A stretch of DNA of 64,000 nt from a virus: the IMG/VR virus record IMGVR_UViG_3300034190_002630; one strand, 5' to 3'. Shown here in pieces: positions 8,089 to 54,607 of the stretch. The notes under the pieces are model-generated. The model made no database searches and was not told the origin of the DNA. It saw nothing but the letters and a program-made list of their open reading frames with translations. Numbering within the stretch: position 1 is the first letter of the stretch; every line of letters starts with the position of its first letter. A program made the translations under genes and the position numbers.

Positions 8089-9079
8089 AGAGTTTGGATC
8101 ACACATGGACGCAGCCATAAAAGGTGAATATCACTATCCACACACAATAGTTTTTGTACCTGGTATATCTTGCATGTACAAATGCACTTTTTGTGGTCGA
8201 AACTATGATGCAAAATTTGAAAAACAAGATAAACATTATGAAGTTTATAGAGATGTCATATATCAAAACAAAGGAAGAGGACAAATAAACATTGGTGGTG
8301 GTCTTGAACCCATGACAAGTCCATATTTGAATCAGATATGTAAAGACTTGCATGACGTTGGTATGAAATCAAGAATGATAACAAATGGATTTATGTTAAC
8401 ACAAAATTACATAAAAAAGAATCCTTATGTTGCAAATTTAGATACTTTGAGAATATCTTTATATGGAATTGATGAAGAGGAGTATAATTCAGTATCTAGA
8501 AATAAAAAAGGTTATCAGGTAGTTAAAAACAATTTAAAATTATTAGACAGAAAAGTAAAACTTAATTATGTTGTATTACCACAAAATGTTGAAAAGATAG
8601 CAAAAATTTTAGATTACATAGATGACATTGGTGGTATAGACGAATTAAGTTTAAGAGAAGATTTTTCATTTCAGTATGAAATAAATGATCGAAATAAGTT
8701 TCAAGATATTCTAAATGAATTTGATATATTAGCAAAACAACGTGGTGTCAAAGTTCATTATGGATATGCGATGTATGATTTACTAAGAGGAAGAAAAAGT
8801 AAATTAATTAAATGTGATTATTTACATTTAGATAAAAAACAATCACCACAAACTAAAATATATCTTGATCCAAACGGTGATTTGTATTATTATAGTGAGG
8901 CGGCATTTTTAGATCGAGAAGGTAGTGAACGTCACATTCTAGGTAATACATGGAGGTCATCAATTGATGATGCACTAAAAGGTATGAAAGAAATAGAACC
9001 ACGTAAAGATGATATAAAGTTCATGGATACTTTAACTCATCTCATAGAATATTATAAATGGAGTGTTCGTAATGTATGA
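8036..9079 (+). CDS. DesII-like radical SAM enzyme (dTDP-4-amino-4,6-dideoxyglucose ammonia-lyase family)
   Basis: PGISCMYKCTFCGR (CxxxCxxC), GGLEP, LRISLYG, LREDF, Y.EAAF pattern as recalled for DesII; start codon uncertain. Confidence 0.75.
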   Translation: MERSLLKNFSTEQIQSIKEFGSHMDAAIKGEYHYPHTIVFVPGISCMYKCTFCGRNYDAKFEKQDKHYEVYRDVIYQNKGRGQINIGGGLEPMTSPYLNQICKDLHDVGMKSRMITNGFMLTQNYIKKNPYVANLDTLRISLYGIDEEEYNSVSRNKKGYQVVKNNLKLLDRKVKLNYVVLPQNVEKIAKILDYIDDIGGIDELSLREDFSFQYEINDRNKFQDILNEFDILAKQRGVKVHYGYAMYDLLRGRKSKLIKCDYLHLDKKQSPQTKIYLDPNGDLYYYSEAAFLDREGSERHILGNTWRSSIDDALKGMKEIEPRKDDIKFMDTLTHLIEYYKWSVRNV

Positions 9080-9467
9080 ATTGAAAGAATATCTTAACTC
9101 TATAAATTATCAAAAAAATAATTTAATGGAAAGTGATGACGTTATGTGGGAAAAAAAGTACCCTGCATATGTTGTTAATAAGTGTTTAGCACCATTTGGT
9201 GATACGATTATGTTAATAAATGAAATGAATAGATTACATCATTTAGATAACAAACTACAATATGATTTCTTACTAAATAGTCTAAGAACTCGAAAGAGAT
9301 TTGCATCGTGGATGAAGTCAAGCAAATCTAAGGATATAGAGTGTGTAAAAGAGTATTATGGTTATAGTAATGAGAAATCCAAGTCTGCTCTAAGCATACT
9401 TAACGATGAACAAATAAAAATGATAAAGGAAAAATTGAATAAAGGCGGACAACATGGAAAACGTTAG
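9072..9467 (+). CDS. gp62: Clamp loader small subunit (T4 gp62)
   Basis: YLNSIN, NEMN, QYDFLLNS, VKEYYGYSNEK; precedes regA. Confidence 0.92.
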   Translation: MYELKEYLNSINYQKNNLMESDDVMWEKKYPAYVVNKCLAPFGDTIMLINEMNRLHHLDNKLQYDFLLNSLRTRKRFASWMKSSKSKDIECVKEYYGYSNEKSKSALSILNDEQIKMIKEKLNKGGQHGKR

Positions 9468-9867
9468 TTTTAATAAAGACAATATGCTTGAAGTGACTCT
9501 TAAAGAACCTGATGATTTTTTAAAGGTTAGAGAGACACTATCTAGAATCGGTGTGGCTTCAAGAAAAGAAAAAAAATTATATCAGTCTTGTCATATTCTT
9601 CACAAACAAGGTAAGTATTACATTGTTCACTTCAAAGAACTATTTGCACTTGATGGTAAAGAAACAAACTTAACAGAGAATGATATAGGAAGAAGAAACA
9701 GAATTGCTAGTCTATTGAAAGATTGGGGTTTGATTAATATCAGTAGTGAAGTACAAAACATGTCACCACTTAGTCAAATCAAAATTATAAGTTTCAAAGA
9801 AAAGTCTGAATGGACTTTAGAAACAAAATATAATATTGGAAAGACTAAAGATGAGAACAGTATATGA
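9454..9867 (+). CDS. regA: Translational repressor RegA
   Basis: PDDFLKVRETLSRIG, LYQSCHILHKQG.YYIVHFKELF. Confidence 0.97.
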   Translation: MENVSFNKDNMLEVTLKEPDDFLKVRETLSRIGVASRKEKKLYQSCHILHKQGKYYIVHFKELFALDGKETNLTENDIGRRNRIASLLKDWGLINISSEVQNMSPLSQIKIISFKEKSEWTLETKYNIGKTKDENSI

Positions 9868-11032
9868 TGAATGGACAAGGTTACAAAAAGTAATCATTGG
9901 TCGATCATTTGATCTAAGTAATTTTAATATAGATTATAAAAATAAAATATTATTTAATTATGATAAGACAATATCAGAAAGACATCAACACTTTTCAAAT
10001 ATAGAATATGACGGTAATAGAACTACAACTGATAGTTTACTAGATTTAGTTGAGGGTAATTTATCAGGTTTAAAAAAAATACATGATGAAACTAATGAAG
10101 ACTTAGATGTATTAGCAGACATATGTAAACAGTTTGGTACGTTTGTTGTAAGACCAGATATATTATATCCAATAGAAACTGAGTGGCGTCATCCCATGCA
10201 AGTTAGAGATACGATTGGTAAAATAGGTGATACAGTCTTTGAGGTTTACACTTCATCTTGGGATAGGATGTATGAAAATCTAAACTGTAGAAATATTTTG
10301 ATAGATGAATTTGAAGAGGGTGCTAGATATATTTCGATGCCATTTCCCATATATGAAAGAAAACCAACAAATACTATAGATGATATTGATATAAAAAATG
10401 AGATATCCAATAAAGAAATACAATCATATGATAATCAAGGACAAATATTAGGTGATACAGCTGCATTTATGAAATGTGGAAAACATATTTTTCATACTCA
10501 TTCAAATCCAAAAACAAAACTAAAAAAACAACATTCTCATATTAGTATGACTAATAATGGTAGAGAGTGGTGGAAGAGAGAGTTTCCAAGACATGAATTT
10601 GTGGAAATGAACGCATATGGTCACGTTGACGGAAAGATTTCTATTCTAAGACCAGGTTTAGTATTGGCATGGAATAAAGATCACATACCAGAGATTATGA
10701 AAGATTGGGATGTAATATTGATTGAAAATAAAGCAACATATTCTGGCAAACAAATAAAAGATTTATGTGAGGAAAGAGGTGTTAAAAATTATCCATGGCA
10801 CCATCTATTAGGTGTATCACAAGAAACAAGGTTTGATGCAAACTGTTTATCACTTGATGAAAATACAGTGATCACATCTGGTTATGATAAAGATTTATCA
10901 GATAAATTAAAAAAGTATAACATTGAAATGATACCTTGGGTTAATCGTTGGAACTTTCTTTGGTCTGGTGGTGCTCATTGTTGTTCTGTTGACTTGGCAA
11001 GAGAAGGAAAACTTATTGACTATTTTTCATAA
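9851..11032 (+). CDS. Amidinotransferase (glycine/inosamine amidinotransferase family)
   Basis: EW..L..VIIG N-terminus, RD, GHVDG.I..LRPGL, C-terminal GGAHC..VD..R with catalytic His and Cys. Confidence 0.85.
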   Translation: MRTVYDEWTRLQKVIIGRSFDLSNFNIDYKNKILFNYDKTISERHQHFSNIEYDGNRTTTDSLLDLVEGNLSGLKKIHDETNEDLDVLADICKQFGTFVVRPDILYPIETEWRHPMQVRDTIGKIGDTVFEVYTSSWDRMYENLNCRNILIDEFEEGARYISMPFPIYERKPTNTIDDIDIKNEISNKEIQSYDNQGQILGDTAAFMKCGKHIFHTHSNPKTKLKKQHSHISMTNNGREWWKREFPRHEFVEMNAYGHVDGKISILRPGLVLAWNKDHIPEIMKDWDVILIENKATYSGKQIKDLCEERGVKNYPWHHLLGVSQETRFDANCLSLDENTVITSGYDKDLSDKLKKYNIEMIPWVNRWNFLWSGGAHCCSVDLAREGKLIDYFS

Positions 11033-11044
11033 TTATGGTATAAT
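11016..11044 (+). promoter_or_regulatory. Sigma70-type promoter for DNA polymerase (probably leaderless transcript)
   Basis: TTGACT-17 bp-TATAAT with extended TG; ATG begins 7 nt after the -10 box; no SD. Confidence 0.8.
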
Positions 11045-11050
11045 ATCCAC

Positions 11051-13525
11051 ATGAGGTTTTATACAAACATTTCTCAATGGGGAAATAATTTATTATTACG
11101 TGAAGTCATAGATGGTAAGAGAGTAAATCGAAAAGTAAAATATTCGCCAACTCTGTATTGTCCTGTGATGCGTGAGACAAATTTTAAAACTTTAGAAGGT
11201 AAGTATGTTACGCCTATAAAACATCAAACAATGAGAGATGCCAAAGAGTGGGTTGAACAATATAAAGAACAACCACATTTATTATATGGTAATACGCAAT
11301 ATCAATATTCTTTTTTATATGAAAACTATCCAAACTTAGAATGGTCATTAGATGATGTATTGATCGCAACGATTGATATTGAAGTTGCTTGTGAAAATGG
11401 TTTTCCTAATCCACAAGATGCTATTGAACCTTTACTTTCTATCACTGTAAAAAATCATGCTAATAAACAAATATTTGTTTGGGGTGTTGGTGAGTACAAA
11501 ACAACTCGACCAGACGTTGCTTATGTCAATTGTGAAAATGAAAAAGAACTTATCTATGAGTTTTTAAAGTTCTGGCAAATGAACCAACCTGATGTTATCA
11601 CTGGTTGGAATACAGAATTTTTTGACATACCATATCTTTGTAATAGAATAAAAAAACTTTGTGGTGAAGATGACTTAAAAAAATTATCACCATGGAAATC
11701 TGTTTCATCAAAAAACATTTACTCAATGGGTCGAAGTCACCAAGTTTGGGATATACAAGGTATCGCTGCTTTAGATTATTATGATTTGTATCGAAAGTTT
11801 ACATATACAAATCAAGAGTCATATCGTTTAGATCATATCGCATACGTAGAACTAGGTGAAAGAAAAGACGGAAATCCTTATGATACTTTTAGAGATTGGT
11901 ACACAAATGATTTTCAATCTTTCATTGACTATAATATAACAGATGTTGAGATTGTTGATAAACTTGAAGAGAAAATGAAACTTATCGACTTGTGTTTGAC
12001 AATGGCCTACGAGGCAAAGGTTAATTATACAGATGTTTTAGGATCAGTTAAGTATTGGGATATTTTAATACACAACTATTTAATGGATAAAGGTATTGTT
12101 GTTCCACAAAAAGTAGAAAGAGAAAAGTCTGAGAAGTATGAAGGTGCATATGTAAAAGATCCACAGACAGGTATGCATGAATGGGTATTGTCTTTTGATT
12201 TAAATTCACTATATCCACATTTAATTATGCAATATAATATTTCACCTGAAACAATGAAAAGTGAACAGACAGTTCCTAATATGTCGGTTGATAAACTATT
12301 AGATAAACAAATAGACACATCTGTTTTAAAAAACACAACTATGACACCAAATGGTGCTTTATTTCGCACTGACAAAAAAGGATTCTTGCCTGAGATGATG
12401 CAAAAAATGTATGATGATAGAGTTAGATATAAAAAGGCAATGTTAGAGGCAAAACAAAATCTTGTTAACACAAAAGATAAAAAGTATGAAAAACAAATTT
12501 CTACGTTTAATAATATACAAATGGCAAAAAAGATTGCACTTAACTCAGCATATGGTGCTATTGGAAACAATTGGTTTAGATATTATTCACACACAATGGC
12601 AGAAGCGATTACTACATCTGGTCAATTATCTATTCGTTGGATTGAAAAAAAGATAAACAGTTATATGAATGGATTACTAAAAACTAAAGATAAAGATTAT
12701 GTTATTGCATCTGACACTGACTCTGTTTATATTACATTTGATGAACTAATTAAAAAACTTAATCCAAAATATCCTATTGACTTCCTTGATACAATTGCAA
12801 AAGAAAAGGTTGAACCTTTCATTGATCAATCATATCAAGAACTTGCAAACTATCTACATGCATATGAACAAAAGATGCAAATGAAAAGAGAAGTGATTGC
12901 AGATAAAGGTATTTGGACTGCAAAGAAAAGATATATTTTAAACGCATACGATATTGAAGGTGTTAGATATAAAGAACCAACATTGAAGATTATGGGTATC
13001 GAAGCAGTGAAGTCATCAACACCTGCACCATGTCGTGAAAAAATTAAAGAGGCTTTGAAGATTATGATGTCTGGTGATGAAAAAGAACTAAATAAATTTA
13101 TACAAAATTTTCGTGAAGAGTTTCTTACACTTCCACCAGAAGACATTGCATATCCAAGAAGTGTAAATGGTTTGAACAAATGGTCTGAGACACATACATT
13201 ATTTAAGAAAGGTGCTCCGATACATGTCAAAGGTGGAATATTATATAATCATTTAGTAAAGAAAAATAAACTTACAAGATACTATCCTTTAATACAAGAA
13301 GGTGATAAGATAAAGTTTTTATATTTAAAACTTCCTAACATTTATCAATCATCATCTATATCATTTATTACAACACTTCCAAAACAACTTGACTTTAAAG
13401 TTGATTGTGAATTACAGTTTGAAAAGTCATTTATTGAACCACTTAATTTTATTATTGAAAAGATTGGATGGTTTGTTGATAGAACTTATGGAACACAAGG
13501 AACACTAGAAGATTTTTTTGCATGA
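11051..13525 (+). CDS. gp43: Family B DNA polymerase (T4 gp43)
   Basis: DIE exonuclease motif, SFDLNSLYP, K..LNSAYG, SDTDS. Confidence 0.98.
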   Translation: MRFYTNISQWGNNLLLREVIDGKRVNRKVKYSPTLYCPVMRETNFKTLEGKYVTPIKHQTMRDAKEWVEQYKEQPHLLYGNTQYQYSFLYENYPNLEWSLDDVLIATIDIEVACENGFPNPQDAIEPLLSITVKNHANKQIFVWGVGEYKTTRPDVAYVNCENEKELIYEFLKFWQMNQPDVITGWNTEFFDIPYLCNRIKKLCGEDDLKKLSPWKSVSSKNIYSMGRSHQVWDIQGIAALDYYDLYRKFTYTNQESYRLDHIAYVELGERKDGNPYDTFRDWYTNDFQSFIDYNITDVEIVDKLEEKMKLIDLCLTMAYEAKVNYTDVLGSVKYWDILIHNYLMDKGIVVPQKVEREKSEKYEGAYVKDPQTGMHEWVLSFDLNSLYPHLIMQYNISPETMKSEQTVPNMSVDKLLDKQIDTSVLKNTTMTPNGALFRTDKKGFLPEMMQKMYDDRVRYKKAMLEAKQNLVNTKDKKYEKQISTFNNIQMAKKIALNSAYGAIGNNWFRYYSHTMAEAITTSGQLSIRWIEKKINSYMNGLLKTKDKDYVIASDTDSVYITFDELIKKLNPKYPIDFLDTIAKEKVEPFIDQSYQELANYLHAYEQKMQMKREVIADKGIWTAKKRYILNAYDIEGVRYKEPTLKIMGIEAVKSSTPAPCREKIKEALKIMMSGDEKELNKFIQNFREEFLTLPPEDIAYPRSVNGLNKWSETHTLFKKGAPIHVKGGILYNHLVKKNKLTRYYPLIQEGDKIKFLYLKLPNIYQSSSISFITTLPKQLDFKVDCELQFEKSFIEPLNFIIEKIGWFVDRTYGTQGTLEDFFA

Positions 13526-46757: not shown

Positions 46758-47039
46758 ATGGATTTATTCTTTCAAATACTTACACAGTTTGGTTTACCTG
46801 TTGCGGCTGCAATCACAATGGGATTATTCATTTACATCATCCTAAAGTATATTTTAGCAGGTGTTGTTGATCAAGTAAAAACAATTACAGGTATCATTGC
46901 ACAATTAGATAATCGTATCAAGACAATGAATCATGATATGATTAAATTAGATTTATTAGTATCTCATGCATTACATCTCAAACCAGATTTAGATAGATTA
47001 TCACGATCTGATGGTAAGGAAGATGCACGAAAGGACTAA
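46758..47039 (+). CDS. Small membrane protein, paralog 1
   Basis: QFGLP.AAA..MG.FIY TM, then L.NRI..MN.D. Confidence 0.7.
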   Translation: MDLFFQILTQFGLPVAAAITMGLFIYIILKYILAGVVDQVKTITGIIAQLDNRIKTMNHDMIKLDLLVSHALHLKPDLDRLSRSDGKEDARKD

Positions 47040-47296
47040 TGGACGTTTTACAAATACTTGAACAATATGGTTTCGCAACATTGGCAGCTGTTGCCATGGG
47101 TTATTTTATCTACTTTATTTACAATTATGTGACAACACAAATCATTGAAAAGTTAGATAACACAATGAAAGTGTTGATAGCTCTTATCGATAGGGTCAGA
47201 ATGTTAGATAATGACATTATTAGACTACGTTCTAAACTGAATACTGCACTAGAAATGCGAGAAAACGAGGATAAAGAAGACAAAACAGATAAATAG
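47039..47296 (+). CDS. Small membrane protein, paralog 2
   Basis: QYGF..LAA..MGYFIY TM, then LIDRVRMLDND. Confidence 0.7.
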   Translation: MDVLQILEQYGFATLAAVAMGYFIYFIYNYVTTQIIEKLDNTMKVLIALIDRVRMLDNDIIRLRSKLNTALEMRENEDKEDKTDK

Positions 47297-47303
47297 AAAC
47301 GTT

Positions 47304-47741
47304 ATGAGAACGTTATTTATACTGTTTTTTTGTGTTTCTGTGTCGGCCAGCGAACTAGTACATGATTTTAATAATCCTAGTTTTTCTGGTCAAGGATACT
47401 CATCTCATGTTCTATCAATAGAACAATTACAGTTTACGAGAAAAGAACAGATAAAAGATGATATTGAAGCGGCAGAACGTGATGCCAAACGAGAAGAAGA
47501 AAACGAAACAGTAAATCGTTTTCTTGCAAACTTAGAATCACGTATCTATGCGAATTTATCAAAACAATTAGTTGATAATATGTTCGCTGAAGATGGCGCT
47601 AATACAGGAACAGCAGAGATTGAAGGAGCAGAAATCTATTGGGAAAAGGATACCGACTTAGGAACTATTATGATTAGAGTGACTGAAGAAGATGGTACCG
47701 TGACAACTGTAACAGTTCCAATTGGTGATTTTGGGTTTTAA
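47304..47741 (+). CDS. csgF: Curli assembly protein CsgF
   Basis: Signal peptide, ELV..F.NPSF.G, F...LESRIY..LS. Confidence 0.85.
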   Translation: MRTLFILFFCVSVSASELVHDFNNPSFSGQGYSSHVLSIEQLQFTRKEQIKDDIEAAERDAKREEENETVNRFLANLESRIYANLSKQLVDNMFAEDGANTGTAEIEGAEIYWEKDTDLGTIMIRVTEEDGTVTTVTVPIGDFGF

Positions 47742-48508
47742 TGATTAAATGGTTACTTGTATTCTTTCTCTTAACAGGTTGTGTAACAGGACCTAAGACA
47801 TTTGATTATGAACCACCAAAGGTTTCACAATCAGTTTTAGATTTACAGGCAGTACCACAATTAGACGGACCGCCGATCACAGTTGCAGTTTATACTTTCT
47901 TTGATAAAACAGGTCAAAGAAAACCAAGTGAAAAGTTTAGTCAACTAAGTACCGCAGTGACACAAGGTGCTGAAGTTTGGGTAATACAAACACTTCAAGA
48001 GGTTGGTAATGGTACTTGGTTTAAAGTTGTTGAAAGAAGTGGTTTAGATAATTTAATTAAAGAACGACAATTGATTCGTTCAACACGTGAACAATATGAA
48101 GAAGGCGATAAACAATTAAAACCATTGTTATTTGCTGGATTGATTATTGAGGGTGGAATTATTGGATATGATTCCAATATAGTAAGTGGAGGAGCAGGTG
48201 CTCGATATTTGGGTATTGGTGCCACTCAACAATATAAAGTTGATAATGTTACTGTGTCAATGAGGGTAGTTAGTGTTTCAACTGGTGAAGTATTACTAAC
48301 AGTTGCGACAGAAAAAACTATTGCATCTCATGCTACAAGTGCCGATGTATTTCGATTTGTAGATATGGGAACTACTGCTGTCGAAGTGGAAACAGGTGTT
48401 GCAACGAATGAACCTGTTAACTATGCAGTGAGAGCTGCTATAGAACAAGGTATTATGGAATTAATAGGACAAGGAGTAGATAAGGAAGTTTGGAAATATA
48501 AGGAGTAA
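47741..48508 (+). CDS. csgG: Curli secretion channel lipoprotein CsgG
   Basis: Lipobox LTGC, VAVY.F.DKTGQRK, STAVTQG, WF.VVER.GL.NL.KERQ.IR, EGGIIGYD, NEP. Confidence 0.93.
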   Translation: MIKWLLVFFLLTGCVTGPKTFDYEPPKVSQSVLDLQAVPQLDGPPITVAVYTFFDKTGQRKPSEKFSQLSTAVTQGAEVWVIQTLQEVGNGTWFKVVERSGLDNLIKERQLIRSTREQYEEGDKQLKPLLFAGLIIEGGIIGYDSNIVSGGAGARYLGIGATQQYKVDNVTVSMRVVSVSTGEVLLTVATEKTIASHATSADVFRFVDMGTTAVEVETGVATNEPVNYAVRAAIEQGIMELIGQGVDKEVWKYKE

Positions 48509-48512
48509 ATAA

Positions 48513-49223
48513 ATGATAAACAAGACGTTAATTTTATTATTGACGTTGTTTTGTGGGTCAATTTACGCAAATGATATTTATATAGAACAGGTTGGTGACA
48601 ATCTTGATTTGGACATCGTACAAGACGGACAGAATAACGAGATTGGTGATTCAACAACAGACATGACTTTAAATGGTGATAATATGACATTTAGTATTAC
48701 ACAAACAGGTAATACAAATACAATAGATGCGATAATTAAAGGAAGTTCATATACAGGAACTTGGTCATTTACAGGTGATTCAAATACTGTGGACTTATTG
48801 TGTAGTTCGACATCATCAGGTAATTGTGATAATGTCACATTAAACATTACTACATCAGGTGATGATAACACATTTGATTTTGATATAGGTGAAGTTGCAG
48901 ACGCAGATGGTTCTACTGTATCATTTACATTAACAGGTGATCACAATGTAACGAATGTTGATGTAGATGGCCAAAGTGCTTCTGTTACTGTAACAGTTGA
49001 CAATTCATCATCATTATCAACAAATTCGACAAACTCAGATGAGGGCGTTGCGATGAATATTGATGTTGACGGAAATGGTGATGTAAACGGACACACGATA
49101 CTTGTAGATATTACAGGTGGTGGTGGAACCCTTGACATTACGCAGTCTGGCGTGTATGATAATAACATAGATTTAGATGTAACAGGTGACGATTTTGATA
49201 TTGATATTACACAAAGTGACTAA
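48513..49223 (+). CDS. Secreted curlin-like repeat protein
   Basis: Signal peptide; IEQVGD, IVQDGQNN, ITQTGNTN (QxGxxN-type) repeats. Confidence 0.7.
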   Translation: MINKTLILLLTLFCGSIYANDIYIEQVGDNLDLDIVQDGQNNEIGDSTTDMTLNGDNMTFSITQTGNTNTIDAIIKGSSYTGTWSFTGDSNTVDLLCSSTSSGNCDNVTLNITTSGDDNTFDFDIGEVADADGSTVSFTLTGDHNVTNVDVDGQSASVTVTVDNSSSLSTNSTNSDEGVAMNIDVDGNGDVNGHTILVDITGGGGTLDITQSGVYDNNIDLDVTGDDFDIDITQSD

Positions 49224-50334
49224 ATGGATTTCAATACTTTCAGTATTGTATTTTCTATTTCTGTTACTTTACTCTAACAGTATAGATGCCAGTATTGGAA
49301 ATGTAACCGATCTTAAAGGTAAAGGTGTTATCAAAAGAACAGACGGTGGCGAACTCCAACTTCAAAAGGAGTTAGATGTTTTTTCTTATGATGAAGTCAA
49401 GACAGGGAACGGAAGAACAGGAATTACTTTCGTTGATGACACCACAGTTGAAATTACTGAACATTCAAAATTAATCATAGATGAATTTATCTATGATCCA
49501 GCAAACAAAAAAGGTGGACTTTCTTTAACTGCTGCTTTAGGAACAGTCAAATATGCATCTGGTCAAATTGCAAAAGATTACAGAGATAATGTAAAAATAC
49601 AAACACCAACAGCAACCATCGGTGTTCGTGGTACAGACTTTGCGATGATTGTTGATGAGATTGGTGGATCAACTATTATCTTATTACCAAGTTGTGATAC
49701 AAATGGTAATTGTTTTGTTGGTGAAATATCTGTTGAATCTGATGCAGGTCAAGTTATAATGAATCAAGCATTTCAAGCAACAAGAGTAGAAGCGCCAGAA
49801 ACAAAACCATTCAAACCTATTTCTGTGGATATTGATGAAAGTATGATTTCCAATTTACTTATATTATCACCACCAAGAGAGATTGATGATTTAGAAGCAA
49901 AAGAAGAAGCAAAGAAACGTGCCAATGTTTTAGATATTGATTTTTTAGAAATAGATGCACTGAATGAAGATTTATTAGCAACAACTTCAGAGGATGAAGA
50001 ATTTACAGAATTGGATATTGATTTCCTCAAACAAGATTTTTTAGCAGATATTTTAGATCAGATAAATAAAATACTGGCTCAAGAATTTTTGTCTGAATTG
50101 ACGGATGTTTTTGTTGAGAAAAAACAAAAAACAGGTCAACTTGAAAATGGCGTTATTGTTGTCGATGATGGTAGAAATTTTATTTTTTCAAGACAAGGTC
50201 CAAACAATTTTGTTCGTATCGTGTTAAGTAAAAGATCACAATATGAAATTAATTTAGAACAAACTGATATACAAATCAGAGAATTTATCGTAGGAGAAGG
50301 CAGTGTCAATAATGTCGATATTTATCAGCGTTAG
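49186..50334 (+). CDS. FecR-domain protein
   Basis: N-terminal TM/signal; D.V.TG.G...I.F.D.T.V.I.E.S.L.ID; IQTPTATIGVRGTDF. Confidence 0.8.
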   Translation: MTILILILHKVTKWISILSVLYFLFLLLYSNSIDASIGNVTDLKGKGVIKRTDGGELQLQKELDVFSYDEVKTGNGRTGITFVDDTTVEITEHSKLIIDEFIYDPANKKGGLSLTAALGTVKYASGQIAKDYRDNVKIQTPTATIGVRGTDFAMIVDEIGGSTIILLPSCDTNGNCFVGEISVESDAGQVIMNQAFQATRVEAPETKPFKPISVDIDESMISNLLILSPPREIDDLEAKEEAKKRANVLDIDFLEIDALNEDLLATTSEDEEFTELDIDFLKQDFLADILDQINKILAQEFLSELTDVFVEKKQKTGQLENGVIVVDDGRNFIFSRQGPNNFVRIVLSKRSQYEINLEQTDIQIREFIVGEGSVNNVDIYQR

Positions 50335-51244
50335 TATAGTTTTTTTAAGTGTGCAAACTATAAAGTACGCAAATGCAAACGAAATTTACATAAGTCAAGT
50401 TGGTAATAATCCTACAATAACTATAACGCAAGACGGTGAAAACAATAGAGTTTCTACAAAAAGCACAGCAGCCTCAAATGCTACTTTAGTGGGTAAAAAT
50501 CAAACAATCAATTTTACACAAACAGGCGATAATAATAAGATTGGTCTATACAAACACTATTATGGTTCTGATAATCAAACTGCAAGTAATATGACTGCTA
50601 CACAAACAGGTGATAATCTTGTCATGTACTTAGATAATCACGGTGATAATAATAATTTCACAGCGTCACAAATTCATCAAAACGCAAGCATGGATTTAGA
50701 AATTGATTATGATAACAATGATGTAATAGCAAAACAAATCTGTTCATATTCAACTTGCGACCAAGACATAATGATATTAAACGTAGTTGCAAATGACAAT
50801 GAAATAATAATGGCACAAGGTTATGATGTTTCAAGCACAGGTGTTTTTAGTTATGATTATCAAGAACATGGTGGACATTATATGAATGTTTATATTTCTG
50901 GTGATAATAACAGTTATATTGCAAGTCAAAGAGCAAATAATAATTTAACTGAACATACTAATTATTCTTACATTTATGGTGATAACAATAATATCTTTAT
51001 TAAACAAGAACATAATAATGATAAATCGTTATCTCTAACTGTGAATAATGATTATAATGATGTAGATATTTACCAAAGAAAATCAGGTGGTTCACAATCT
51101 GCTATAATCACTTTAAGTGGAACTTACGGAACGGATTTAGATTTGACTATGGGAACAAATAATACAACAACTGATGGTACATATTCATTATCTCAAAACT
51201 GTCAAACAGTAGGTGGATGTAGTATAAGTGTGACACAACAATGA
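50303..51244 (+). CDS. Second secreted curlin-like repeat protein
   Basis: NEIYISQVG, ITQDGENN, FTQTGDNN, GDNN repeats. Confidence 0.7.
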   Translation: MSIMSIFISVSIVFLSVQTIKYANANEIYISQVGNNPTITITQDGENNRVSTKSTAASNATLVGKNQTINFTQTGDNNKIGLYKHYYGSDNQTASNMTATQTGDNLVMYLDNHGDNNNFTASQIHQNASMDLEIDYDNNDVIAKQICSYSTCDQDIMILNVVANDNEIIMAQGYDVSSTGVFSYDYQEHGGHYMNVYISGDNNSYIASQRANNNLTEHTNYSYIYGDNNNIFIKQEHNNDKSLSLTVNNDYNDVDIYQRKSGGSQSAIITLSGTYGTDLDLTMGTNNTTTDGTYSLSQNCQTVGGCSISVTQQ

Positions 51245-51441
51245 TAAAAATATTTTTAATTGCTATGGTTTTTAATTATGAAACAGAAAAATGGGCCTTT
51301 TTTGATAAACTACCTATAATAGAAATGCCTACTATGAAACAATGTCTGATATATCAAAATGGATTTAATAGAAGATTTATTGAAACAGGAACTAATATCA
51401 GAGCATTTTGTGTAGAAAAAGAACCTGATATTTATATTTAA
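51241..51441 (+). CDS. Hypothetical protein
   Basis: Overlapping start/stop with both neighbours; two Cys. Confidence 0.55.
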   Translation: MIKIFLIAMVFNYETEKWAFFDKLPIIEMPTMKQCLIYQNGFNRRFIETGTNIRAFCVEKEPDIYI

Positions 51442-53279
51442 TGAAAAAAATAATTACTCATTGGACGTTTGCATTTGTTACATTAGTCTTAATTACATTT
51501 TTAGGACTACAAAATCCTCAAATTAAAGAAATTCTTAAACTTAAATCATTCGATTTATTGTTTCAATCTGAAGAAAAAACAATCTCTGAAAATATTGGAA
51601 TCGTTACTATTGATGAAGCATCAATACAAAAATATGGACAATGGCCGTGGAAAAGAGATATTCTTGCAGATTTAATTTACAAATTACGAGAATCAGGTGT
51701 CGGTATCATTATGATGCCAATACTTTTTTCAGAACCTGATCGTTTAGGTGGTGATGATGCGTTTGCACAATCATTAACTAACATGGGAGTTGTTATTGCT
51801 CAAGTAGGAACTACACAAACTAATAAGAATACAGTTCCAAGAGGAGTTGCAAAAGTCGGTAATCCCATTCCTTATCTTTTTGAATGGCCAGGAATGTTAG
51901 GACCTATTCCTAAATTACAAGTTGCAGACGGAGTTGGAGTGATTAATACTGCACCAGAATTAGATGGTGTAGTTAGACGAGTTCCTTTAATAATGAGAAT
52001 CGGAGAGGAAACTTATCCACAAATGGCAATTGAAGTCATTCGTGTTGCAACAGGACAACCAAGTTATCAAGTAAAAGCAAATCAATTTGGAGTTGAGGCA
52101 TTAAGAGTGCCTGGGTTTTCCCCAATCAAAACTGATGTAAATGGAAGAATATGGTTGCGTTGGAATAAAGATTATGAAACAATATCAGCAAGTGAAAATG
52201 ATTTTACAAAATTTGCAGGTCGTACAGTTATTGTAGGAATGACAGCAGAAGGTTTAGGTGGCATCATTGCAACACCTAATGGTGAACAATATGATTATAT
52301 TTTATCGGCATCTACATTAGATACAGTACTTAGTGGTGAATCTGTTGGACGAGTTGATTGGTTGATAGAGACAATTATAGCATTTGTCTTAGGAGCAATC
52401 ATTATTGTTCTTACAAGATTTACATCATACCCTTGGGTTGCCTTTACAATGGTTTCAGGTGTTCTTATATTAATAATACATTGTGCCGTAATCTTTCAAG
52501 AATATCTTTTACTATTCGATATCACATGGATTTTAATTACAATTTTATTTGTTGGATTGCACAGCATATTCAATCGTTTTATTTTAGAATTTAATTTAAA
52601 ACAACAAATACGAAAACAATTTGAAACATACTTAGATCCACGACAAGTTGCAATACTACAAAAAGACCCTAGTAAATTAAAACTTGGTGGTGAAAGAAAA
52701 GAGATGTCATTTCTGTTTATGGATATTGTAGGGTTTACACCAATATCTGAATATTACAAAAACAATGATGACCCAGAAGGTTTAGTAGAAGTTATTAATG
52801 ATTATTTAAATCGTATGACAAAAATTGTTTTAGATAATGGTGGAACAGTGGACAAATACATGGGTGATTGTATTATGGCATTTTGGAATGCACCATTAGA
52901 ATGCCCAAATCATGCTGAGATGGCAGTCAAGACAAGTATTGAATGTGCGATTGAAACTGAAAAACTAAAAGAAGAATTTAAGAAAAAAGGTTTACCAGAA
53001 ATCAATATAGGATCAGGTGTCAATACAGGCACTTGCATTGTTGGTAATATGGGAAGTGACACTAGATTTGATTATTCTGTAATTGGTGATGCTGTTAATT
53101 TGGCTGCACGATTAGAGGCTCAAACTAGGAACTACAAAGATAAGAATGGTAAGGTTGTATCAACACTTTACTCATCTTATACAAAAGAACAACTTACGAA
53201 CATCAAATCAATAGAAGTTGATAAGATTAAAGTAAAAGGAAAGGAAGAATTAATCACTATTTACAAACCAGTGATGTGA
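51441..53279 (+). CDS. CHASE2-domain class III adenylate cyclase
   Basis: IDE.S...YGQWPW.R CHASE2, three TMs, FMDIVGFT, DKYMGDC, DYSVIGDAVNLAARLE, VKGK. Confidence 0.93.
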   Translation: MKKIITHWTFAFVTLVLITFLGLQNPQIKEILKLKSFDLLFQSEEKTISENIGIVTIDEASIQKYGQWPWKRDILADLIYKLRESGVGIIMMPILFSEPDRLGGDDAFAQSLTNMGVVIAQVGTTQTNKNTVPRGVAKVGNPIPYLFEWPGMLGPIPKLQVADGVGVINTAPELDGVVRRVPLIMRIGEETYPQMAIEVIRVATGQPSYQVKANQFGVEALRVPGFSPIKTDVNGRIWLRWNKDYETISASENDFTKFAGRTVIVGMTAEGLGGIIATPNGEQYDYILSASTLDTVLSGESVGRVDWLIETIIAFVLGAIIIVLTRFTSYPWVAFTMVSGVLILIIHCAVIFQEYLLLFDITWILITILFVGLHSIFNRFILEFNLKQQIRKQFETYLDPRQVAILQKDPSKLKLGGERKEMSFLFMDIVGFTPISEYYKNNDDPEGLVEVINDYLNRMTKIVLDNGGTVDKYMGDCIMAFWNAPLECPNHAEMAVKTSIECAIETEKLKEEFKKKGLPEINIGSGVNTGTCIVGNMGSDTRFDYSVIGDAVNLAARLEAQTRNYKDKNGKVVSTLYSSYTKEQLTNIKSIEVDKIKVKGKEELITIYKPVM

Positions 53280-54364: not shown

Positions 54365-54607
54365 TTGAAACAATATAGAAAGAAACCAAACTTTGAAAGG
54401 ACTGAAGGTCTACACGTAATTGTTAGGGATAACAATGTAGATAAGGCCATGAGGAAGTTAAAAAGAATGGTTAAGAATGCTGGGATTCTACAAGAAATAA
54501 AAGAACGACAGTTTTTTCAAAAGCCATCAGAGAAAAAAAGACTTGCTAAAAAAGCAGGTAAAAAAAGGTGGTTAAAAAAAGTTGCACAAATGGAACATGA
54601 GTATTGA
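54365..54607 (+). CDS. rpsU: Ribosomal protein bS21
   Basis: V.VRDNNVDKAMRKLKR....GI..E.K.R.FF.KPSEKKR; AAGGAG RBS, TTG start. Confidence 0.9.
   Translation: MKQYRKKPNFERTEGLHVIVRDNNVDKAMRKLKRMVKNAGILQEIKERQFFQKPSEKKRLAKKAGKKRWLKKVAQMEHEY

Follow-up and report, generated by a model that had tools for sequence, protein, structure and literature searches.

The window analyzed here is a stretch of viral DNA of 64,000 nucleotides (IMG/VR record IMGVR_UViG_3300034190_002630). Between positions 46758 and 53279, it carries nine plus-strand open reading frames (ORFs), each abutting or overlapping the next, which combine genes for curli-type (type VIII) secretion with genes for a FecR-domain protein and a CHASE2 adenylate cyclase (Table 1). 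An initial annotation, made by reading the sequence without database searches, had drawn a nine-gene operon with these same boundaries and gene identities, and profile searches of the module proteins (Pfam, PHROGs and NCBIfam) bore it out, with all ORFs in place and the domains recovered by Pfam and PHROGs. Comparison with phage and bacterial relatives shows the module to be a chimera, in which an alphaproteobacterial-type curli secretion set is joined to a FecR/CHASE2-cyclase pair and to two membrane proteins found only in viruses.

Table 1. Genes of the module, with family matches (E values)
Feature	Position	Strand	Evidence and description
mp1	46758..47039	+	phrog_18771 2.7e-37; 93-aa single-pass membrane protein
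mp2	47039..47296	+	phrog_18771 3.8e-34; 85-aa paralogue of mp1
CsgF homologue, signal peptide	47304..47741	+	PF10614 6.4e-17; phrog_35372 1.6e-56
CsgG outer-membrane lipoprotein pore	47741..48508	+	PF03783 4e-56
cur1, secreted curlin-repeat protein	48513..49223	+	Curlin_rpt 1.1e-3, below cut-off; predicted beta-solenoid
Secreted FecR-domain protein	49186..50334	+	PF04773 2.8e-9
cur2, second secreted curlin-repeat protein, hypervariable slot	50303..51244	+	Curlin_rpt 1e-3
orf66, 66 aa, doubtful status	51241..51441	+	no family match
Predicted CHASE2 adenylate cyclase, presumably class IIIb	51441..53279	+	PF05226 3.7e-44 and PF00211 6e-18

The module is already known, and the window adds another member to the pelagiphage family that joins a type VIII secretion system (T8SS) to FecR and an adenylate cyclase (AC). 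A curli cluster was described in pelagimyophages by Zaragoza-Solas et al. in 2020 (PMC7029224). Buchholz et al. (2022) discussed the cluster of phage Melnitz, proposed a pinholin or secretin role for it and modeled the CsgGF structure (PMC9004378). In the same year, Wittmers et al. reported the full set from podo- and myophages, 'HK'-CsgF-CsgG-CsgA/B-FecR-CsgA/B-AC ('HK' for histidine kinase), pointed out that FecR and the cyclase are foreign to bacterial curli operons, inferred an alphaproteobacterial origin, and detected module genes at all 65 GOV2.0 stations examined (PMC9599517). Hence, the remark in the initial annotation that csgF and csgG have been noted in pelagimyophages was correct but understated, as the complete module, along with its FecR and cyclase genes, was in print by 2022. 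Both genes are also named as such in the GenBank annotations of Pelagibacter phage HTVC008M and Methylophilales phage Melnitz. These two phages provide the closest public matches (HTVC008M gp011-gp019, with ∼70% nucleotide identity, and the syntenic Melnitz genes 97-104), and the same gene families occur there in the same order. The window differs from the published modules in having an additional 66-aa ORF and a cur2 allele of its own, neither of which is an essential difference.

The carrier is an HTVC008M-type myophage. Upstream of the module lie genes for a ribonucleotide reductase (RNR) small subunit-glutaredoxin, a methyltransferase and a PIG-L protein, and downstream lies a T4-type RNase H gene, which places the module in the part of a T4-like genome devoted to replication, outside the structural module.

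To survey its occurrence, we scanned IMG/VR with the cyclase as seed, which yielded at least 588 relatives, and retrieved 80 loci. The upstream genes were in order at every one of these loci that had enough upstream DNA. A separate scan seeded with CsgG, which reaches down to 47% CsgG identity, found csgF and mp1/mp2 upstream in 75 of 75 loci with upstream DNA, and curlin, FecR and cyclase genes in all 25 loci having ≥6.5 kb of downstream DNA. Linkage of the FecR and cyclase genes to csgFG, on which the initial annotation had staked its interpretation, was thus found in 25 of 25 loci with enough DNA. One contig retains the whole gene order despite a cyclase identity of only 35%. Because the order recurs at every sampled phage locus with sufficient flanks, the arrangement is far beyond chance. 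Comparison with a near relative (L263) revealed 93-99% identity for the core proteins and an excess of synonymous changes in seven of eight genes, the other being csgF, with 8 changes of each kind. Judged from these substitutions, the core genes are under purifying selection.

The secretion genes are readily recognized. CsgF scores 62.4 bits against a Pfam cut-off of 25.8 and covers profile positions 5-132 of 132, while CsgG scores 190 bits against a cut-off of 20.8, matches E. coli CsgG (3X2R) over its full length (2.5e-53) and retains the lipobox LLTGC. The constriction of the pore is another matter. E. coli residues Y51/N55/F56 are aligned with S/Q/L in phage CsgG, and the loop reads KPSEKFSQLSTAV in the phage gene (47741-48508) versus KPYPASNFSTAV in E. 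coli. Given this difference, the pore lining is unlike that of the enterobacterial model. No CsgE (PF10627) was matched among the module proteins or in five related phage records, in line with the initial annotation, and alphaproteobacterial curli systems have likewise been reported without CsgE. Relative to bacterial curli secretion, then, the phage module has the CsgG lipoprotein, CsgF and secreted repeat proteins rich in Q/N (one modeled as CsgA-like), but it lacks CsgE, CsgC and CsgD. Its curlins are larger (236 and 313 aa) and fall below the Pfam threshold, and it adds FecR, the cyclase and the two small membrane proteins. We found no FecR, CHASE2 cyclase or mp gene within 10 kb of csgFG at seven alphaproteobacterial loci.

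N termini resembling signal peptides, as judged by hydrophobicity, are predicted for CsgF, cur1, cur2 and the FecR protein. The assignment of cur1 and cur2 to the curlins is less straightforward. Their Curlin_rpt scores (19.3 and 19.4 bits) lie just under the Pfam cut-off of 20.7, and the NCBIfam CsgA model hits cur1 (1.4e-3) far below its cut-off. The two proteins share 36% identity over ∼100 residues (25-119). In cur1, Q-x-G-x-x-N motifs are repeated, and an alignment shows them to be conserved across 27 orthologues. AlphaFold2 models cur1 as an all-beta protein of stacked strand pairs (pLDDT 75, pTM 0.73). In a full VIA-align scan with this model, Pontibacter CsgA (8C50) was matched with a Z of 15.4 and 22% identity, the highest identity of the top rows; by Z (∼15-16), it stands level with SufD-type and other beta-helices. 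A Foldseek search with the model gave nothing below an E of 0.49, and the cur1 family profile found no CsgA among PDB sequences at E < 1. A CsgH match in cur1 (E 0.055) was taken as noise. The term 'curlin-like' is therefore supported at the fold level for cur1, by the model and VIA-align together, and we regard this protein as a predicted CsgA-like beta-solenoid. By contrast, cur2 is tied to the curlin family through its sequence similarity to cur1, as a probable relative.

The position of cur2 is striking in its variability. At every phage locus, the slot between FecR and the cyclase holds at least one curlin-family ORF (111-494 aa), with extra ORFs at times. cur2 is only ∼51% identical to its counterpart in L263, with indels, although the flanks are 96-97% identical. 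We compared the equivalent slot across loci L004-L083 and L169-L247. Among locus pairs with ≥90% identical FecR, slot identity is bimodal, at either 0.16-0.42 or 0.65-1.0. Since close relatives fall into these two groups, replacement of the slot as a cassette is suggested, and the region (50303-51441 in the window) fits the behavior expected of a hypervariable, replaceable cassette. One locus, L074, has ORFs of 507 and 1446 aa in this slot. Two other IMG/VR contigs, L209 and L210 (216,820 and 339,794 bases), carry a complete module in which cur2 and the cyclase are separated by an additional 3.8 kb; they may belong to very large phages or be cellular DNA that was misclassified.

Next to cur2 lies orf66, which has no Pfam, PHROGs or NCBIfam match and no homologue in the 80 cyclase-seeded loci. 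In L263, an ORF of the same length is 79% identical, with 4 synonymous and 14 non-synonymous changes. Because this is its sole occurrence beyond the window and non-synonymous changes are in excess, the status of orf66 is doubtful.

At the other end of the module, mp1 and mp2 are 27% identical to each other, and in each a single hydrophobic helix at the N terminus precedes a conserved one. In mp1, the hydrophobic helix spans residues 11-29 and is followed by the conserved helix DNRxKxMNxDMIKLD and a charged tail. Neither protein matches a Pfam or NCBIfam family, and an ESM Atlas search with mp1 returned viral clusters alone, with no assigned function. Changes relative to L263 are nearly all synonymous (11 versus 1 in mp1 and 12 versus 2 in mp2). 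Taken together with the survey, mp1 and mp2 are virus-only, strongly conserved proteins that belong to the module universally. On two IMG/VR contigs, the pair lies instead 3' of the cyclase on the minus strand, still linked to the module (L173:13526-14052 and L174:13772-14298). The published label 'histidine kinase' is unsupported for these proteins, which have 85-93 residues and no HisKA or HATPase match; mp2 has no histidine at all, and none is conserved across the mp1/mp2 family.

The FecR-domain protein has two candidate starts, a GTG at 49186 and the one at 49195 that was called in a relative. The 382-residue product consists of a signal peptide, a beta-sandwich (∼35-200), an acidic linker (∼200-310) and a small C-terminal beta domain; in the AlphaFold2 model, the N-terminal sandwich is confident and the linker is of low confidence. 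PF04773 matches with 37.7 bits, and the family numbers >6,500 relatives, the top scorers being from marine metagenome and phage-like contigs. The family profile matches, at the sequence level, the RIN domain of the adhesin MpIBP (5IX9; 2.2e-4), and Foldseek aligns the model to the same structure with a TM-score of 0.74, a root-mean-square deviation of 1.0 and 34% identity over 61 columns. RIN is the periplasmic N-terminal plug that lodges the 1.5-MDa RTX adhesin MpIBP in a TolC-like pore (PMC5550230), and 5IX9 served as the template on which LapA's retention module was modeled (bioRxiv 10.1101/198937). These matches establish homology between the phage FecR domain and MpIBP's periplasmic plug. 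The likeness to the LapA/MpIBP retention module, in both sequence and fold, concerns the first half of the phage domain. There, however, the domain is the N terminus of a giant adhesin secreted by a secretion system of type I (T1SS) and plugs a TolC-like pore, whereas the phage protein has a Sec-type signal, adjoins a gene for a CsgG pore and contains no RTX repeats.

Foldseek also matched the FecR model to the periplasmic domain of PupR (6OVK, 6.7e-4) and to two Bacteroides anti-sigma factors. A periplasmic FecR-type domain is indeed what the protein shares with the FecA-FecR-FecI and PupB-PupR systems. Unlike these, it has no match to an anti-sigma family, and only a signal-peptide-like hydrophobic stretch (the first 35 residues) precedes its FecR domain, in place of a cytoplasmic anti-sigma domain. 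We found neither an extracytoplasmic function (ECF) sigma factor nor a TonB-dependent transducer among the nine module proteins and ten flanking proteins scanned. Another parallel is Burkholderia BiofilmReg, in which a LysM-FecR protein is paired with a CHASE2 histidine kinase (PMC5192318); in both systems, a FecR protein accompanies a CHASE2 sensor. The phage output differs from all of these, being a cyclase rather than a kinase or sigma factor. The published description of the phage protein as an 'iron-dependent regulator' over-reads the name of the domain, as nothing ties it to iron. We also considered whether its C terminus might be a curlin-like repeat and rejected this, as an hhalign comparison between the two families, FecR and cur1, returned a probability of 0.6% and an E of 0.1.

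The last gene encodes a predicted adenylate cyclase. Hydrophobic helices are found at residues 4-22 and, three in number, between 307 and 382. This pattern places the CHASE2 domain in the periplasm, and the predicted topology is one transmembrane helix, periplasmic CHASE2, three transmembrane helices and a cytoplasmic catalytic domain. The protein matches P. aeruginosa CyaB (3R5G, 6.4e-31). Alignment with CyaB accounts for the metal-binding Asp pair, the substrate Lys, and the transition-state Asn and Arg, and D428, K472, D476, N553 and R557 are invariant or nearly so across 22 phage and bacterial homologues. The catalytic residues are intact. The initial annotation had listed the same two Asp, Lys, Asn and Arg, which are conserved, along with an adenine-specifying Asp, which was wrong. 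The residue paired with the specifying Lys is Ser546, aligned with a Thr of CyaB; the Asp that had been counted was probably Asp544, two residues away. In the Linder and Schultz classification, the second specificity residue is reportedly Asp in classes IIIa/c/d and Thr or Ser in class IIIb. The pattern with Ser546 we take to be that of a class IIIb cyclase.

To see how related cyclases are used in bacteria, we examined 84 bacterial loci: 80 around the CHASE2 cyclases closest to that of the phage (28-36% identity, mostly from Alphaproteobacteria) and four from assemblies. A FecR-domain ORF was found within 10 kb of the cyclase in 31 of the 84 loci and was adjacent to it in 13 of these. Five of these genomes contain 4-11 FecR copies per 5-8 Mb, from which we estimate that chance alone would bring the two genes together in roughly 1-5% of cases. 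FecR genes are therefore strongly enriched beside the closest bacterial CHASE2 cyclases. Twelve of the FecR-domain ORFs have lengths of 900 aa or more. The long ones that were scanned bear cadherin-like/Big_9 repeats and/or C-terminal RTX repeats, and one of the bacterial adhesins (L156) matches 5IX9 (1.9e-7). From their domain composition, these long ORFs are predicted to be LapA/MpIBP-type adhesins with an N-terminal FecR-like domain. Secretion genes accompany them: an HlyD-type fusion protein is encoded within 10 kb in 24 of 84 loci, with a co-directional ABC-HlyD-cyclase arrangement in 14. The full order adhesin-ABC-HlyD-cyclase is seen in L094:2713-12115, L103:2793-12124 and L110:220-12100, and ABC-HlyD-cyclase also occurs in L091, L095, L097, L099, L100, L104, L111, L132, L148, L154 and L162.

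Curli genes, on the other hand, are absent from these neighborhoods. No homologue of CsgG, CsgF, curlin or mp was found in the 84 bacterial cyclase loci, and CsgF occurs in only 7-8 of 401 sampled alphaproteobacterial genomes. Thus, the pairing of FecR with a CHASE2 cyclase exists in bacteria without curli genes, and often in type I secretion/RTX adhesin operons. In the limited literature searched, we found no description of CHASE2 tied to type I secretion or adhesins, nor of this recurrent operon. These bacterial operons (FecR/RIN-RTX adhesin, T1SS ABC-HlyD and CHASE2 cyclase, in Tardiphaga, Pseudolabrys and uncultured Alphaproteobacteria) resemble the phage module in having a related cyclase, a FecR-like domain, and a surface repeat protein together with its secretion machinery within one locus. 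They differ in that secretion is of type I, as opposed to type VIII in the phage, and in that FecR is fused to the adhesin. In one of them, L111, from a marine alphaproteobacterial single-cell genome, an HlyD-family protein with an N-terminal cyclic nucleotide monophosphate (cNMP)-binding domain (2.2e-18) is encoded directly upstream of the CHASE2 cyclase (8243-9958, plus strand), and the ABC protein has a C39-like domain. This arrangement suggests cyclic AMP (cAMP)-gated type I secretion, and it has no counterpart in the phage.

In a FastTree phylogeny of the phage sequences and the 84 bacterial ones, with midpoint rooting only, the phage cyclases form a single clade with 100% local support. 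One bacterial clade of 36 members gathers the majority of the FecR/T1SS contexts (27/36). Because the phage clade lies outside all 84 bacterial sequences, the tree does not single out a donor or sister group for the phage cyclase.

What does this combination of genes do? We lean, with a little better than even confidence, toward a T8SS-FecR-cyclase auxiliary module in which the cyclase is coupled to secretion of a surface fiber through the periplasmic FecR-like protein. In this model, the CsgG/CsgF pore in the outer membrane would export the curlin-like proteins onto the surface of the infected cell, and the FecR-like protein would remain in the periplasm at the foot of the apparatus, where it would touch the CHASE2 domain. 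Synthesis of cAMP at the inner membrane would thereby be coupled to the state of the surface fiber or its secretion. The signal could run inward, with contact or fiber load raising cAMP, or outward, with cAMP controlling secretion. The phage would have kept a conserved design (fiber, FecR foot and CHASE2 cyclase) while swapping the type I system and RTX adhesin for a type VIII system and curlin, and cur2 would be the outward-facing part, under diversifying selection.

A precedent for such coupling is found in S. meliloti, where the outer-membrane protein NsrA feeds the CHASE2 cyclases CyaD1/CyaD2/CyaK, with Clr as the receptor (PMC13001267). There, as proposed for the phage, CHASE2 cyclases receive an external protein signal via an outer-membrane protein, and a FecR-domain periplasmic protein, SMc02177, belongs to the same regulon. 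The partner in S. meliloti is a beta-barrel, NsrA, rather than CsgG; no secretion system is involved; and the cAMP receptor is known. The initial annotation had proposed a trans-envelope signaling chain leading from a surface curlin through the CsgG pore and periplasmic FecR to an inner-membrane cyclase. The predicted locations of the parts fit such a chain, as do the enrichment of FecR beside bacterial CHASE2 cyclases and the NsrA and BiofilmReg precedents. By analogy, then, the chain may be said to have indirect support in the form of fiber-cyclase coupling.

A number of observations weigh against the coupling model. Some podophage modules keep FecR without a cyclase (Wittmers et al., PMC9599517), and so FecR cannot solely be the cyclase's input. 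FecR and type I secretion genes are both missing within 10 kb at 39 of the 84 bacterial loci, and the phage cyclases do not fall inside the type I-associated bacterial clade. The sequence match between FecR and 5IX9 spans only ∼70 residues, and the phage protein is free and Sec-exported and does not form the N-terminal part of an adhesin. Its C-terminal domain, which is modeled at low confidence, shows no profile similarity to curlin. No cNMP-binding protein (PF00027) was found in HTVC008M, Melnitz or a 152-kb relative. Finally, Melnitz-infected cultures exhibited no clumping (PMC9004378).

The module is of some consequence, since the hosts, SAR11 and OM43, are among the most abundant marine bacteria. 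The module gives infected cells a secretion system that these hosts lack and probably a second-messenger source that they lack as well. New here are the tracing of the FecR-cyclase half to a bacterial arrangement associated with type I secreted adhesins, the relationship of the FecR domain to an adhesin plug, and the hypervariable curlin slot. The first two of these turn a vague 'regulator' annotation into specific predictions of interaction and activity, and they suggest a class of ligand for the poorly understood CHASE2 domain. One can go further and view the phage module and the bacterial FecR/RIN-adhesin-T1SS-CHASE2 operons as two versions of one undescribed design, in which CHASE2 would read a periplasmic FecR-like fiber foot at the pore, such that fiber load, adhesion or contact is converted to cAMP, or cAMP gates secretion of the fiber. 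Pelagiphages would then furnish a curli-less host with a complete contact-sensing organelle bearing a fast-evolving outward subunit. This generalization is speculative, and we think it unlikely to hold as a whole.

The coupling model must be weighed against others. The module might be a fiber factory alone, in which case curli-like fibers on infected cells would cause aggregation ('sibling capture') or would act against competing phages as a shield or decoy, with FecR and the cyclase as separate host-reprogramming genes that travel along. Hypotheses of this sort have been published (PMC7029224, PMC9599517), and much fits them: the secretion set is complete, cur1 has a CsgA-like predicted fold, hypervariability of cur2 is expected of a surface-exposed adhesin or decoy, and the cyclase is reportedly missing from some podophage modules. 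Mere co-transport is harder to square with the invariable linkage of FecR and cyclase to curli genes across the loci sampled, always with a curlin gene between them, and with the fact that FecR and CHASE2 are an established pair in bacteria, beside surface-fiber secretion systems. The lack of clumping in Melnitz cultures also argues against aggregation. We consider this alternative unlikely. The initial annotation had gone further, proposing signaling 'rather than only a fiber factory'. The recurrent linkage to the cyclase favors that wording, but the predicted fold of cur1 leaves the fiber interpretation standing.

That annotation had also given the chain a definite direction and purpose. A curlin would sense contact or superinfection and signal through CsgG and FecR to the cyclase, with cAMP resetting host signaling or lysis timing. 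The topology fits, NsrA and its CHASE2 cyclases are a precedent for sensing an external protein, FecR/PupR-type domains (as in the 6OVK match) relay signals from outer-membrane proteins, and the outward-facing cur2 is hypervariable. Nothing in our analysis, however, supports a ligand, superinfection sensing or a link to lysis, and the module is placed among replication genes. The lack of a cAMP receptor in the three related phages is a further difficulty, and the cNMP-binding HlyD of L111 hints that cAMP acts on secretion as opposed to reporting from it. An outside-in sensor in this specific form seems to us quite unlikely.

A repurposed pore is more improbable still. According to this idea (Buchholz 2022; Zaragoza-Solas 2020), CsgG/CsgF would be a gated channel, acting as a pinholin- or secretin-like lysis timer or in uptake of large solutes, and the other proteins would be gates or regulators. 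The absence of a CsgE gate and the constriction residues unlike those of E. coli are consistent with such a role, and the Melnitz CsgGF has been modeled structurally (PMC9004378). Yet alphaproteobacterial curli systems also do without CsgE, and two curlin-family proteins with signal peptides, one of them predicted to be CsgA-like, are conserved at every locus. An outer-membrane pore alone, moreover, cannot depolarize the inner membrane. It is highly improbable that cur1 and cur2 are ordinary components of the virion, such as fibers: beta-solenoids are common in tail spikes and fibers, and cur2 is hypervariable in the manner of receptor-binding proteins, but both proteins bear Sec signal peptides, their genes invariably sit among those for CsgG, FecR and the membrane cyclase and lie between RNR/glutaredoxin and RNase H (replication/nucleotide metabolism) rather than in the structural module, and the same module is found in unrelated podophages.

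Two minor observations concern the surroundings of the module. On the plus strand, neither the module nor the stretch immediately upstream contains the T4-type late motif TATAAATA, which occurs in the window about as often as expected by chance. Shortly 3' of the module in L263 lies a gene for ribosomal protein S21 (11007-11252), with a probable equivalent in the window at 54365-54607; S21 was listed among the core pelagimyophage proteins by Zaragoza-Solas et al. (PMC7029224).

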